Of a stretch of 64,000 nt of DNA, positions 20,959-25,733 are shown piece by piece (positions within the stretch are counted from its first letter, which is position 1; each line of letters starts with the position of its first letter). Under the pieces are notes generated by a model. The model saw only the letters and a list, made by a program, of their open reading frames with translations, was not told the DNA's origin and did not search any database. The position numbers and the translations under genes were made by a program. The stretch lies in sequence record MT968995.1. One strand, given 5' to 3'. The stretch comes from Escherichia phage vB_EcoM_WL-3.

Positions 20959-20961
20959 CAA

Positions 20962-20981
20962 TGGGGACCGAAAGGTCCCCA
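20962..20981. terminator. Terminator hairpin between gene 54 (+) and the minus-strand alt cluster
   Basis: TGGGGACC-GAAA-GGTCCCCA hairpin followed by tgtttttatt. Confidence 0.7.
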
Positions 20982-20986
20982 TGTTT

Positions 20987-21277
20987 TTATTTACGGAATG
21001 AAATAAAAGCAGCAACTGAAGCAACTAAACTGTCTTCAATATAAACTTCAATTTTTACCGGAGCTTCTGATTCAAATTTACCTGTTACTACACCCTGGAA
21101 AATGCTTTCAGTCTGTTCTGGCTTTGAAAAATTTTCAGAAGGAAAAATTCCGAACTTTTTATTTGTTCCAAAAATTTTGATAAATTCATCATAAACTGCT
21201 TCATTAAAAGCGTTATCAACAGGAATAACGCCTTCAACTACAAGTTCTTGACCTAAAAAGCGTAAAGAAGATTTCAT
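20987..21277 (-). CDS. Hypothetical protein (alt.-3-like position)
   Basis: 96-aa ORF directly downstream of an early promoter. Confidence 0.6.
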   Translation of the reverse strand: MKSSLRFLGQELVVEGVIPVDNAFNEAVYDEFIKIFGTNKKFGIFPSENFSKPEQTESIFQGVVTGKFESEAPVKIEVYIEDSLVASVAAFISFRK

Positions 21278-21308: not shown

Positions 21309-21338
21309 ATTATAACACAATACGAGGGACTTGTAAAC
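21309..21338 (-). promoter_or_regulatory. T4 early-type promoter (GTTTAC-N18-TATAAT)
   Basis: Minus-strand GTTTACAAGTCCCTCGTATTGTGTTATAAT; the same cassette recurs upstream of alc. Confidence 0.6.
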
Positions 21339-23395
21339 TACATCTTGAACTTTTTAGACATTCCGTTGATGTTAACCAAAGAAGCTAAGATTTGAGAAAC
21401 TTCGTTTTCCTCTTCTTTTGATTCTTCTACAAGGAATTGATTAAACCCAGCCATTGGACGAACTTCACCAGTTTCCATCAGATGATCGCCATCATATACC
21501 GATTCTTCTAATTGTTCAGAAGGAGGAACGATTGTACCTTCGATTAAATACTTGTTATAAGCAGTTTCTTTCATCATGTACGTGCTCACTTTATTAATCT
21601 TCAGCAAAATTCCACGTGGTAAAATAACTTCAGCTTCTGACGTAAATCCTGATAAATGACCCGGAACGATAACTTTGATTCGCTCAGCTCCTTTAATTAC
21701 CATACCCACGCTAGTTTCAGCATCTTCATTCGCATAAGCAGAATGACTGCCCATATGCATCAAATCTTCTGCGTCAATTGAACCTTCTCCTTCACCAGAA
21801 AATACTGCACTGGAATCATCTAGAGCCATATAGTTTTTACCATACTCACCGAAGATATTTGGTTTAAGCGATGTGGATACGAAGTTCTTAAAATAGAACA
21901 TTTTATTTTCAATATTATGACGTAAAGTTTTAAAGGTAACTTCTTGGCCACGGTAAAGCGTAGTTCCTGGAGGAAGAACTGATCCTTTGGCAAAAGCAGA
22001 ATCCATCGTCTCGATGTGTTTAATAGCTCGTTCCATATATTCTTCACGAGTAGAATCCGGTTTACCTAAAAGGAACGAGTTCATTTCAACATATGAATCT
22101 GCGCAATAATCTTCAATTACATCAGACTCAGCCCGAGTTAATCCTTTTGGGGGTACTTCAGTACTTGCATATTCATACGCTTGAGAAGCAGACTCATTAA
22201 TCAATTTATAAATGCCATTCATGACAAATTGAATAATAGCTACCTTTTCATCTGGCGTGGCTTTAGAACCTTTAACTAAATCATTGACAATTTTCTTAAT
22301 AACATCAAAGCTATTAGAAATATTAATGTCAGCAAGATCGCTTAAAATTTTATCAGTTTTATAATCAAAAAATTCTTTATTCTTTAAATATTCTTGAGAA
22401 CCTTGATGTGTTATATCGCTCTGCAGTCTGATAGACGGATCACGTAAACGTGCATGGGCCAATGCAATATGATTTCGGAAGCTTTTTAGTTCATAATCAC
22501 TAGATTTAAAACGAGAAGCACTCCTCATACCACCGATAGCTCCTTTGCCGAAGTTTGAACCAATCTGAATAACGCCAGAGTTCATTGGTCCTTCTGCTTT
22601 ATATACCGGAACTTTAGATTCAAACTCTTGATATTTCTTAGCAGCGAAACTATCGCCCTGAAGTGAAGCATCGACAGTAGAGTATTGAGCTTGTGCTGCT
22701 AATCGACGACTAATTTTAGTTTTCTGAATAACAGCTTGATCCGTGCGCTTATCATTTTCTAAAGCAATAGAAGCGGCAACAGCAACAGCTTTAGGAACAG
22801 CATTACCTGTTTTAACGTCTACATAAACATCACCAACCTTTGATTCAACTTTTGTGAATAACTCAGTTGAAATAGGAGGTACACCTGGAATGTCTTCTAA
22901 ATTGGCATTTTTACGGTAAACCATAATATATGCATACTTTTTATCGTAATCCCAGATTTCCTTTAAAAGAACATATCGACCTGCTCCTTTAGTACGTACT
23001 AAACGGTCAGCAATAACTTGAATTTGTCGAGCTGCGCCATTTGTTTTACTCTTTAGTACGCGGAACAGGCATGCGTCAATTTTATACTGTTTCATTGTTT
23101 GAAGAGCAGTATCAAAAACCGCATTAATAACACCAATTGGATTTCCACCCAAGTTTTTAAGTTTAACTAATGATAGTTTCTCATTGACACCTATCATTAC
23201 GATATGCATCATTTTATCGCCTGGCTTAACGTTTTTATTTGTATCACCGCCAGAGGTGTATGTGCAAAATCTAAATCCAGGAAGCACGCTTTCTTCACCG
23301 GCTTGAATAGCAAAAATTTGAGGTATTTTATGCTTAGGATTTAAGTTAACAACCGGCGCCGAAGCGCCGTCAAATAATTCTGTAATAAGTTCCAT
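21338..23395 (-). CDS. Alt-family ADP-ribosyltransferase, paralog A
   Basis: 685-aa ORF with MELITELFD N-terminus and C-terminal ART motifs (YRGQ Arg, FVSTSL, EAEVILPRG); paralogous to the adjacent ORF; which copy is the T4 alt ortholog is not resolved. Confidence 0.85.
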   Translation of the reverse strand: MELITELFDGASAPVVNLNPKHKIPQIFAIQAGEESVLPGFRFCTYTSGGDTNKNVKPGDKMMHIVMIGVNEKLSLVKLKNLGGNPIGVINAVFDTALQTMKQYKIDACLFRVLKSKTNGAARQIQVIADRLVRTKGAGRYVLLKEIWDYDKKYAYIMVYRKNANLEDIPGVPPISTELFTKVESKVGDVYVDVKTGNAVPKAVAVAASIALENDKRTDQAVIQKTKISRRLAAQAQYSTVDASLQGDSFAAKKYQEFESKVPVYKAEGPMNSGVIQIGSNFGKGAIGGMRSASRFKSSDYELKSFRNHIALAHARLRDPSIRLQSDITHQGSQEYLKNKEFFDYKTDKILSDLADINISNSFDVIKKIVNDLVKGSKATPDEKVAIIQFVMNGIYKLINESASQAYEYASTEVPPKGLTRAESDVIEDYCADSYVEMNSFLLGKPDSTREEYMERAIKHIETMDSAFAKGSVLPPGTTLYRGQEVTFKTLRHNIENKMFYFKNFVSTSLKPNIFGEYGKNYMALDDSSAVFSGEGEGSIDAEDLMHMGSHSAYANEDAETSVGMVIKGAERIKVIVPGHLSGFTSEAEVILPRGILLKINKVSTYMMKETAYNKYLIEGTIVPPSEQLEESVYDGDHLMETGEVRPMAGFNQFLVEESKEEENEVSQILASLVNINGMSKKFKM

Positions 23396-23398
23396 GAT

Positions 23399-25495
23399 TT
23401 ATCCTTGAACGAACTTGTAAGGCATGTTTGTAATATCTATGCAAGACGCAATAATTCCGAGAGATGATTCTGCTTTCTGTTTAACATTTGATGAAACAAA
23501 TGATGCAAAGTCAACTCTGTCTTCTATTTCAATATCACCTGTCATTGCAACTACTTCACCAGTTTCCATTAAATGGTCTCCATCATAAATTACTGATTCG
23601 GTGAGTTCTTCTGTAGTCATAACTTCAGATTGAATGAGTTTTGTATTATTAGATGTTGTTCCGTCATTATTAGAAGCATCAGTTATTTTATTAACTTTGA
23701 CCATCAATCCGCGCGGTAGAATAACTTCAGCTTCTGTTGCTATTCCGAGACTTCCTGGATATACAACATTAACTTTATGAGCTCCATCAATTGCCCATCC
23801 TATTTGAACTTTAACGTATTCAGGATTTTCTTTATACGCTCTTATTTCGTTTGGATTAATAGTTATTCCTTCTTCATTTTTATCAACTGTCAATTCATTA
23901 CGAGCTTCTGGTTCTAAAAGACCAATACCAGCATGTGTAATTCCAAAACGTCCAAAAATGATAGGAGTTAAAGAAGTAGATACAAAATTTCTGAAATAGA
24001 ACACTTTATTTTTAACTAGTGCTTCGTATATAGGAGCAGTCATACTTTGAGCACGATAAACTGTAATGCCTTCTGGTATACGGTCACCATTTTCAAAAGC
24101 TGAATCTAAGTTATTTATAGCAGATTCAATTTCTTTTTCACTCATTACATCATATCGTTCTGGATTGTAACGACCCAAAAGAAGATTATTGATGTCAGTA
24201 TATCCTGAACCACAATACTCTCTAATGCCGCGCTTTTGTGATGGAGTATATTTAGAACCATCACGGGCAATAGTAATATCAATCATTGGACCTGCACCAA
24301 TTCCAGAAAAACTATAAATCATTCGTTTGAGGAATTTAGTTTTTGCTGCGTTCCAGGAATTTTTAGTTATTTCTTCCCAGACTTCATCTGGCTGTCCTTT
24401 ACGGGTTTTATTATGTTTATCAAGCCAAGTATCTTTATATTCTTCAAAGAATTTATTAACAGCTGCTGCGTATTTCTCTAAACATTTTATTGAAGTAGTT
24501 GGTTCATTTTTAATCGCATTAAGAATTACATCTTTAATTTTTTCAGAAACTTCATTAACCTCACTTTTTGAAAAGAATTTATAGTCATAGTGAAGTTCAT
24601 CTGCGGTTCCTTCGGCAATGATTTTTGCTGCCTTAGTTTTAGAAGCTAATGAATTAATTCCAAGCTTCATTTCTTCTGCTTCGGGAATTAAAGGAGCTGT
24701 AGCAGGTTTATTGAAATTAGCTGCAGTAGATTCATACTTCTGGAATAATTCGCTTTCAAATCTAGAAGATTCTAATGATTGACTTTGCGCAATTGCTCTA
24801 CGGGAAATTTTAACTTTAACAATAACAGCTTGGTCAGAACGTTTATCATTTTCTTGTGCAATAGATGCTGCAATTGCCTCATTTTTAGTTACTTGAGCTC
24901 CAGTATCTTTATTGATATAAACATCGCCGACTTTCGATTCAACTTTAGTAAAGAGCTCGGTACTAATTTCCGGAACTCCTGGAATGTCTTCTAGTGATAC
25001 ATTTTTGCGATGTATAAGAATATATGCATACTTTTTATCGTAATCCCAGAGTTCCTTAAGAAGGACGTATCTGCCACCTGAACGACTACGAATAAGTCTA
25101 TCAGCAATAACTTGAATTTGTCGAGCTTGACCAGCAGTTTTAGACTTAAGAATACGGAGCATACAGGCATCAATTTTATACTGACGCATCGTCTGCATTG
25201 CAACAGTAAAAACTGAATTGATATAATTAATTGGGCTTGGACCGAGACCTTTTAATTTAGCAATTGAACCTTTAGCAGTTAATGTAAAAGGAACAATATG
25301 CATCATTTTATCGCCCATTTTTAAATCGCGATTAGTATCACCTCCAGATGTATAGGTACATAAACGAAAGCCTGGTTGTTCAATTGCGTCATCGACATGA
25401 ACTGAAAAAATTTGTGGTATTTTCTTCTTTGGATTTAAGTTTGTAATCGGAAGAGTAGTATCTTCGTCAAATAATTCTGTAATGAGTTCCATCAT
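23399..25495 (-). CDS. alt: Alt-family ADP-ribosyltransferase, paralog B
   Basis: 698-aa ORF (697 aa from the second Met) with the same N-terminal and catalytic motifs (YRAQ, FVSTSL, EAEVILPRG); late promoter and SD immediately upstream; symbol assigned by position next to gene 30, which is uncertain. Confidence 0.85.
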   Translation of the reverse strand: MMELITELFDEDTTLPITNLNPKKKIPQIFSVHVDDAIEQPGFRLCTYTSGGDTNRDLKMGDKMMHIVPFTLTAKGSIAKLKGLGPSPINYINSVFTVAMQTMRQYKIDACMLRILKSKTAGQARQIQVIADRLIRSRSGGRYVLLKELWDYDKKYAYILIHRKNVSLEDIPGVPEISTELFTKVESKVGDVYINKDTGAQVTKNEAIAASIAQENDKRSDQAVIVKVKISRRAIAQSQSLESSRFESELFQKYESTAANFNKPATAPLIPEAEEMKLGINSLASKTKAAKIIAEGTADELHYDYKFFSKSEVNEVSEKIKDVILNAIKNEPTTSIKCLEKYAAAVNKFFEEYKDTWLDKHNKTRKGQPDEVWEEITKNSWNAAKTKFLKRMIYSFSGIGAGPMIDITIARDGSKYTPSQKRGIREYCGSGYTDINNLLLGRYNPERYDVMSEKEIESAINNLDSAFENGDRIPEGITVYRAQSMTAPIYEALVKNKVFYFRNFVSTSLTPIIFGRFGITHAGIGLLEPEARNELTVDKNEEGITINPNEIRAYKENPEYVKVQIGWAIDGAHKVNVVYPGSLGIATEAEVILPRGLMVKVNKITDASNNDGTTSNNTKLIQSEVMTTEELTESVIYDGDHLMETGEVVAMTGDIEIEDRVDFASFVSSNVKQKAESSLGIIASCIDITNMPYKFVQG

Positions 25496-25515
25496 ATCCT
25501 CTCTAGTGTTTATTC

Positions 25516-25523
25516 TATTTATA
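25516..25523 (-). promoter_or_regulatory. Late promoter (TATAAATA on minus strand) upstream of Alt paralog B
   Basis: Plus-strand tatttata is the reverse complement of TATAAATA, about 20 bp upstream of the paralog B start. Confidence 0.55.
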
Positions 25524-25528
25524 AAATT

Positions 25529-25546
25529 AAAGGCCCGAAGGCCTTT
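25529..25546 (-). terminator. Hairpin (AAAGGCC-CGAA-GGCCTTT) after the 62-aa ORF
   Basis: Perfect stem-tetraloop overlapping the stop of the upstream ORF, followed on the minus strand by a T-rich run. Confidence 0.55.
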
Positions 25547-25733
25547 AATAATCTAATGGTAAGAGAGTACGGTATATTTCAAACTTTGGCCCTTTTTCAT
25601 AGGCATCAAATGTTTCTGTAAATTTATTATAAGCATATGCATCTACAAATTCGAGAACGATTTGTGATACAGAAGTAGAAACATCTCCACCTTCTTTTTG
25701 AGCCACGACAATTGTTTCTAAGTAAGCTTTCAT
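25545..25733 (-). CDS. Hypothetical small protein between gene 30 and the alt cluster
   Basis: 62-aa ORF with an ATGA start/stop overlap with gene 30. Confidence 0.6.
   Translation of the reverse strand: MKAYLETIVVAQKEGGDVSTSVSQIVLEFVDAYAYNKFTETFDAYEKGPKFEIYRTLLPLDY

Follow-up and report, generated by a model that had tools for sequence, protein, structure and literature searches.

A tandem pair of Alt-family ADP-ribosyltransferase genes in Escherichia phage vB_EcoM_WL-3 and its counterparts in T-even phages

The alt-alt2 locus

This work concerns two tandem genes, alt and alt2, which encode ADP-ribosyltransferases (ARTs) of the Alt family in a 64,000-nucleotide stretch of DNA from Escherichia phage vB_EcoM_WL-3 (sequence record MT968995.1; hereafter the window). 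The window is a Tequatrovirus segment, and the region studied is syntenic with the T4 alt locus (ligase - alt.1 - alt - ... - alt.-3 - gene 54): the order is DNA ligase gp30, alt.1, alt (698 amino acids), alt2 (685 amino acids) and alt.-3, all on the minus strand, followed by the flanking genes 54 and 48 on the plus strand. A preliminary description of this DNA, made from its letters alone, had reported the two open reading frames (ORFs) as tandem and 3 bp apart without giving their strand; both were recovered where it had placed them, on the minus strand. The alt stop codon TAA (23399-23401) is followed by the three nucleotides ATC and then by the ATG of alt2 at 23395. The features of the locus are collected in Table 1.

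That the two ORFs are paralogous, as the same description proposed, is borne out by BLASTP, which aligns their products at 41% identity over the full length (E = 8e-165). The identity is unevenly distributed. Both N-termini carry MELITELFD, residues 12-235 are 68% identical (the roughly 200 similar N-terminal residues recognized before), residues 240-415 7%, residues 416-625, which form the ART domain, 33%, and the C-terminal 60 residues 47%, with the C-terminal segment YDGDHLMETGEV found in both ORFs. Given these values, the unrelated centre that had been described does exist, but it spans about 175 residues (240-415) and not about 250, since the ART domains that follow have diverged and are nonetheless homologous. 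With cores as divergent as these, different substrates for Alt and Alt2 are plausible.

Membership of the Alt family, also suggested before, was found for both proteins. They match Pfam PF03496 above its cut-off of 23.4 bits (69.8 bits for Alt2 and 128.3 bits for Alt), and phrog_802 covers them end to end (residues 1-685 of Alt2 and 1-696 of Alt); an NCBIfam search gave no matches. The R / S-T-S / E-x-E signature is intact in both genes on alignment, and neither copy is without its catalytic residues. In Alt2 (685-residue numbering) the motifs are YRGQ(481), FVSTSL and EAEVILPRG(587), with catalytic residues R482, S507-T-S509, E587 and E589; in Alt (697-residue numbering, used for all alt residue positions) they are YRAQ(479), FVSTSL and EAEVILPRG(587), with R480, S505-T-S507, E587 and E589. 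When 56 family representatives (clustered at 50% identity) were aligned, the invariant columns included R482, S507, E587, E589 and P593-R594-G595, and S509 was nearly invariant.

Arginine-specific protein ARTs are recognized by an E-x-E motif together with an R-S-E core (PMC8120803). A phmmer search for a solved structure of any Alt relative found nothing, and the family profile reaches C3cer, Certhrax, VIP2, iota, CDTa, C3 and Vis in the PDB, aligning YRG, STSL and E-x-E-VILPRG onto the catalytic motifs of these toxins (YRG, STSL and QYE-LLPR in C3cer/Certhrax). Structure models of Alt and Alt2 have an ART fold, the closest match being the arginine-specific Vis toxin. Taking motifs and models together, both proteins are predicted to be arginine-type mono-ADP-ribosyltransferases and to carry out ADP-ribosyl transfer. 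They have the catalytic fold and motifs of the C3 / VIP2 / iota / CDTa / Certhrax / Vis toxins (PF03496) but, unlike C3 / VIP2 / Vis-type toxins, contain a 45-50-residue insert between STS and ExE. Delivery would differ as well, through an N-terminal phage-head module and prohead-protease propeptides in the window proteins, as opposed to a secretion signal or a binary-toxin B component in the toxins. The ARTT loops read GHLSGFTSEAE in Alt2, GSLGIATEAE in Alt and SLAPSNEME in T4 Alt.

The alt start is ATGATG in the window, T4, T2 and T6, and annotations are split between 698 and 697 amino acids. In T2, T6 and PE37 the annotated start is the second ATG, giving 697 amino acids, and the 698-residue ORF of the window begins MMELITELFD. 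The first ATG (MMELITE) fits the published '7-residue' N-propeptide of Alt, while the spacing from the ribosome-binding site (2 versus 5 nt) favours the second.

Table 1. Features of the alt-alt2 locus and its neighbours (positions in the window)
Feature	Position	Strand	Remarks
Intrinsic-terminator-like hairpin AAAGGCCTTCGGGCCTTT + T run	25529..25546	-	Read from sequence; overlaps alt.1 stop, 5' of alt promoter; same sequence in T4, T2, T6
T4-type late promoter box TATAAATA	25516..25523	-	Sole box immediately 5' of alt-alt2; distance to ATG conserved in T4, T2, T6
Ribosome-binding site GAGAGGA	25497..25503	-	Precedes ATGATG start of alt
alt, T2/T6 allele (by sequence)	23399..25495	-	698 amino acids from first ATG, 697 from second ATG at 25492
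alt N-propeptide MELITE (predicted)	25475..25492	-	
alt N-domain	24785..25456	-	
alt helical region	24254..24754	-	
alt ART domain	23618..24253	-	
alt R480 (YRA)	24050..24058	-	
alt STS	23972..23980	-	
alt EAE	23726..23734	-	
alt LME	23564..23572	-	
alt C-propeptide (predicted)	23402..23563	-	
Shine-Dalgarno AAGGA for alt2	23402..23406	-	Within last alt codons, 6 nt upstream of alt2 ATG
alt2	21338..23395	-	685 amino acids; full-length counterpart of T4 alt.-1 + alt.-2
alt2 N-propeptide (predicted)	23378..23395	-	
alt2 N-domain	22691..23362	-	
alt2 helical region	22151..22678	-	
alt2 ART domain	21521..22150	-	
alt2 R482 (YRG)	21947..21955	-	
alt2 STS	21869..21877	-	
alt2 EAE	21629..21637	-	
alt2 LME	21473..21481	-	
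alt2 C-propeptide (predicted)	21341..21472	-	
Stretch with interior absent from T4	21349..23056	-	Ends are imperfect 9-bp direct repeats CTAAAGAGT (23048..23056) and CTAAAAAGT (21349..21357)
alt.1 (upstream neighbour)	25545..25733	-	62 amino acids; Pfam PF24647 'Phage blade'; 94% identical to T4 Alt.1
Strong sigma-70 / T4-early-like promoter TTTACA-17-TATAAT	21309..21337	-	11/12 matches, with TG; just past alt2 stop, upstream of alt.-3
alt.-3 (downstream neighbour)	20987..21277	-	96 amino acids; DUF5498; 98% identical to T4 Alt.-3
Bidirectional terminator hairpin	20961..20982	.	Between alt.-3 and gene 54

Distribution of the pair and its state in T4

The alt-alt2 pair is a normal component of T-even genomes and has been annotated in them before. 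The novelty implied for it in the preliminary description did not hold, as both genes are present and annotated in T2, T6 and hundreds of Tequatrovirus genomes, and are labelled 'Alt' (bas37_0033) and 'Alt2' (bas37_0032) in the GenBank entry of Bas37. The 4.9-kb region is 97-98% identical in DNA to many Tequatrovirus genomes, and 356 of the 538 matching records cover at least 80% of it, many with the annotation 'Alt-like RNA polymerase ADP-ribosyltransferase (x2)'. A core matching that of Alt2 at 90% identity or more occurs in about 400 records, out of roughly 500 related genomes. T2 and T6 possess the same pair (697 + 685 amino acids, 3-bp gap), as do PE37 and Bas37/KarlGJung, and in all of these phages the arrangement is identical to that of the window, the proteins differing by a few amino-acid substitutions. 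Duplications of alt in T4-like phages had already been noted by Nolan et al. 2006 (PMC1524935).

The T4 counterpart of the upstream gene is the RNA polymerase ADP-ribosyltransferase Alt (gpAlt, P12726; NC_000866 T4p200), which is packaged and injected. It occupies the same locus behind the same terminator, late promoter and ribosome-binding site, and has in common with the window Alt the R/STS/ExE signature and both gp21 motifs, with a length of 682 amino acids against 697/698. End to end, Alt is 70% and Alt2 42% identical to it. The identity between the two Alt proteins is close to 100% over residues 1-247, falls to 12-65% over residues 248-600 and returns to 85-95% in the last 100 residues, and at the DNA level similarity to T4 is undetectable over 24256..24686, 80% across the ART domain and 94% in the flanks. 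The ART domain of the window Alt is 64% identical to that of T4 Alt (33-64% for the two window cores). In the phage collection, a T2/T6-type Alt core at least 90% identical was present in 318 records, including T2, T6, RB18 and RB27, and a T4-type core, by the same threshold, in 172; the identity between the two types is about 44-46%. By these comparisons the upstream gene represents the T2/T6 allele of Alt and not the T4 allele, a point missed in the preliminary description, and a T6 alt entry of the window type has been in GenBank for decades (X69894). ADP-ribosylation of Arg265 of the RNA polymerase alpha subunit, and of the other T4 Alt targets, is known for T4 Alt alone (PMC8120803).

No second full-length copy exists in the T4 reference, a possibility that had been left open; there alt (682 amino acids) is followed solely by the remnants alt.-1 (61 amino acids) and alt.-2 (67 amino acids), which the T4 annotation labels an old duplication of the first part of alt. 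Residues 1-56 of Alt2 are 95% identical to T4 Alt.-1 and residues 62-116 are 98% identical to Alt.-2, and the PHROG families of the T4 fragments (phrog_23015 / phrog_15247; T4p199 / T4p198) match the same Alt2 residues. The DNA of alt2 is collinear with T4 as far as a deletion junction. In T4 the split between alt.-1 and alt.-2 comes from the loss of one nucleotide from a run of A (AAATAAAAAC to AAATAAAAC), and a deletion of about 1.69 kb between the repeats CTAAAGAGT and CTAAAAAGT has removed Alt2 residues ~117 to ~680. T4 retains the last ~19 nt of alt2 and the downstream flank at 95% identity and, because this 3' end is retained, alt.-1 and alt.-2 are the wreck of a full-length gene rather than a partial duplication. 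Alt2 is an old paralogue that T4 has lost recently, by frameshift and deletion.

The T4-like junction occurs in roughly 20% of ~500 records, an approximate value that agrees with the ~400 records holding an Alt2 core. The 20%/80% split was taken from the spread of the rows listed, of which 6/29 genome rows cover 100% of the junction query; the 80%-coverage figure was not used for this count because the part to the left of the junction makes up 85% of the query. Allele and deletion also occur in other combinations, with pSs-1 having a T4-type Alt together with Alt2, and slur03 a T2/T6-type Alt together with a T4-like deletion.

Evolution of the N-domains and cores

The N-domains cluster by phage genus (68% identity between the window Alt and Alt2, 41-47% between Tequatrovirus and Dhakavirus), and the cores cluster by type across genera. 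Type A cores are found in T4 Alt, T2/T6 Alt, gene 2 of phage 04086 and CC31, among others, and type B cores in Alt2, JS10 Alt (equivalent to 04086 gene 3), P0011 and P0014. The Dhakavirus phage 04086 (L005, OR842557, 856..7407) has three alt-like genes in a row between its ligase gene and gene 54, in the order C-A-B. Dhakavirus alt clusters (JS10/JS98, 04086) occupy the same ligase-gene 54 position as the window pair, with the same order of type A then type B, the type-C gene of 04086 being additional. Outside Tequatrovirus, the nearest relative of the Alt2 core is JS10 Alt (ART domain 56%, C-terminus 63-68%). Because N-domains group by genus and cores by type, this clustering places the A/B duplication before the genus split, with the cores moving laterally between phages and type B lost recently by T4.

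The window itself appears to hold one such exchange. Its Alt and 04086 gene 2 are 95% identical in the ART domain and 46% in the N-domain (protein), and the DNA of the core, which comprises most of the helical region and the ART domain (~1.27 kb, window 23556..24812 versus L005 3437..4693), is 80% identical against a background of 65-67%. The core cassette of the window Alt looks to have been laterally exchanged with a Dhakavirus. The third gene of 04086 is annotated as N-terminally short, the record containing an N and a duplicated segment of ~65 codons, which probably arose as an artefact of assembly; the gene itself starts near L005 4845, with MENLNEVFD....

In three family representatives, P0199, P0216 and P0223 (485-1142 amino acids), the Alt N-domain is clearly recognizable (phrog_802, E 1e-29 to 1e-36), and the remaining 300-900 residues gave no Pfam or PHROG match. 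We do not claim a fusion of the Alt N-domain to non-ART cargo, because the C-terminal ends of P0199 (...NSEIVLPRG) and P0223 (...EHVEVLLPG) resemble divergent ART motifs; these proteins may be very divergent ARTs rather than bearers of new cargo.

Proposed function of the two enzymes and alternative explanations

Both alt and alt2 are under strong purifying selection. In pairwise Nei-Gojobori comparisons of six phages, the ratio of non-synonymous to synonymous substitution rates (dN/dS) was 0.03-0.08 for alt2 and 0.02-0.07 for alt, with dS of 0.07-0.26; alt2 differed by 30-98 synonymous versus 3-24 non-synonymous changes per pair, and neither gene has internal stops in any of the six. Transposon data for Bas37 published in a 2025 preprint (10.1101/2025.11.20.689424, supplementary tables) list insertions in 116/164 TA sites of Alt2 (saturation 0.71, class 'Intermediate') and in 164/179 TA sites of Alt (0.92, 'Non-essential'), with mean counts on K-12 of 44.5 and 203.6, respectively; Alt2 is unmentioned in the main text of that study. 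This depletion suggests that Alt2 is expressed and that its disruption has a cost. In the same work T4 Alt helps to evade Mokosh type I, and complementation was obtained with the Alt of T4 and not with that of Bas37 (10.1101/2025.11.20.689424), whose allele is the one in the window.

The hairpin, late box and ribosome-binding site upstream of alt are conserved, as elements and in their order, in T4, T2 and T6. Between alt and alt2 no late box or terminator was found and, with neither separating the genes, one late transcript is the simplest reading; by analogy with T4, we infer that alt and alt2 are co-transcribed from one late promoter. A second TATAAATA box at 24112..24119 (minus strand), ~715 nt upstream of the alt2 start, was considered as an internal late promoter for alt2 and set aside; it is probably due to chance, as it lies deep inside the alt coding region. 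The 64-kb window contains 17 late boxes versus 8.9 expected.

The gp21 protease cuts after L/I-x-E, and T4 Alt loses a short N-terminal and a C-terminal propeptide (PMC9026906). I-T-E6 is present and conserved in both window proteins, and both have an invariant Y-D-G-D-x-L-x-E near the C-terminus (L-M-E641 in Alt2 and L-M-E643 in Alt), with a second conserved candidate gp21 site 10-11 residues upstream of L-M-E. The earlier suggestion that the C-terminal segment is of the kind removed by prohead protease agrees with this, since the L-M-E motif is consistent with the published finding that gp21 trims Alt at both ends (PMC9026906). The isoelectric points of the C-terminal propeptides are acidic (4.3-4.9), and the predicted mature masses of 70.3 and 71.4 kDa are to be compared with 69.5 kDa for T4 Alt. 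On the T4 Alt model, Alt2 would likewise be packaged, cleaved and injected.

Taken together, we consider it likely that alt and alt2 form a late operon in a T2/T6-like Tequatrovirus, encoding two functional paralogous arginine-type ARTs that are packaged, trimmed by gp21, injected and directed at different sets of host targets. This proposal builds directly on gene structure, homology, catalytic residues, selection, conservation of promoter and motifs, predicted fold and the origin of the T4 remnants, and for co-transcription, packaging, cleavage, injection and distinct targets of Alt2 it takes T4 Alt as its model. Both proteins would follow a common plan, in which a 6-7-residue N-propeptide ending in I-T-E precedes a ~225-residue alpha/beta N-domain, a ~175-residue helical region and a C3/VIP2/Vis-like ART domain with R, S-T-S and E-x-E, and a 44-54-residue acidic C-propeptide comes after L-M-E. 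The two genes would be transcribed from the single TATAAATA late promoter, alt2 being translated from its own AAGGA site. Both products would enter the prohead core via their conserved N-terminal part, be trimmed by gp21 at both ends and be injected with the DNA, after which they would ADP-ribosylate different host protein sets. Different targets are proposed because the helical regions, the 45-50-residue STS-ExE insert and the ARTT loops differ.

Several observations weigh against this proposal. No late promoter of alt2's own was found, two candidate C-terminal cleavage sites are conserved (L-E-E 631 and L-M-E 641), and the 'Intermediate' transposon class could result from toxic truncated products and not from loss of function. 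T4 and ~20% of its relatives do without Alt2, which is therefore dispensable at least on laboratory hosts. In addition, the literature on 'Alt2', Tequatrovirus virion proteomics and paralogues yielded no dedicated study and no virion, enzymology or target data for Alt2. This lack of direct evidence for Alt2 in virions would suit an active ART that is neither packaged nor injected and acts late inside the producing cell, as ModA/ModB do without packaging, its N-domain having a role other than capsid targeting. An N-domain just 68% identical to that of Alt, and a transposon depletion on K-12 compatible with an intracellular role, point the same way. However, Alt2 belongs to the same late operon as Alt, its MELITE N-terminus and invariant YDGD-x-L-x-E match the gp21 sites cut in T4 Alt, and these termini are conserved family-wide, which is hard to explain if they are unused; we regard an unpackaged Alt2 as unlikely.

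It seems distinctly improbable that Alt2 combines the ART fold with a chemistry or acceptor other than that of Alt, such as nucleic-acid ADP-ribosylation, RNAylation or a small molecule in place of protein arginine. Its best structural match is the Vis toxin, whose crystal structures include an agmatine complex, the ARTT loops of Alt2, Alt and T4 Alt differ, and RNAylation has a precedent in ModB (10.1101/2021.06.04.446905); yet an E-x-E motif with an R-S-E core is characteristic of ARTs that modify arginine in proteins (PMC8120803), and nothing in the sequence is specific to a nucleic-acid acceptor. As for a redundant or decaying duplicate without a function of its own, on its way to the pseudogene state of T4, the deleted remnant carried by T4 and ~20% of Tequatrovirus genomes and the non-essential nature of T4 Alt itself (PMC9026906) could be cited in its favour. 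We reject this reading as scarcely credible because of the low dN/dS of alt2, and it is also opposed by the ~400 records with a core at least 90% identical, the invariant catalytic residues, the conservation of the type-B core across genera (JS10 Alt, 04086 gene 3) and the intermediate fitness class.

Downstream of the pair, C-terminal extension mutants of T4 Alt.-3 are an escape route from the CmdTAC defence system (PMC11618068). In Bas37, one of the competitive-fitness comparisons of the transposon data shows significant depletion of the alt.-3 orthologue bas37_0031 (log2 fold change -2.7, q = 0.02).

The textbook model T4 is the exception at the alt locus: about four fifths of its sequenced relatives, T2 and T6 included, have two full-length Alt-type enzymes, and in many of them the Alt allele has a catalytic core just ~45-64% identical to that of T4. 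With T4 exceptional in this way, findings on Alt (RNA polymerase alpha, MazF, Mokosh evasion) may not apply to the majority of T-even phages, therapeutic isolates among them. The pair is not a discovery, both genes being already annotated, and it serves as a useful pointer for work on phage-host conflict. More tentatively, Alt2 might be a second packaged and injected ART with its own targets, possibly in counter-defence, and the Alt family might consist of a modular delivery domain joined to swappable helical-plus-ART 'warhead' cassettes. If so, a lineage-specific N-terminal capsid-delivery domain and protease-removed termini would be combined with cassette swaps between genera comparable to those of polymorphic toxins, and the recent loss of Alt2 from T4, along with the other Alt allele that T4 has, would partly account for the known fact that T4 and T2/T6 are not equally sensitive to bacterial defence systems.

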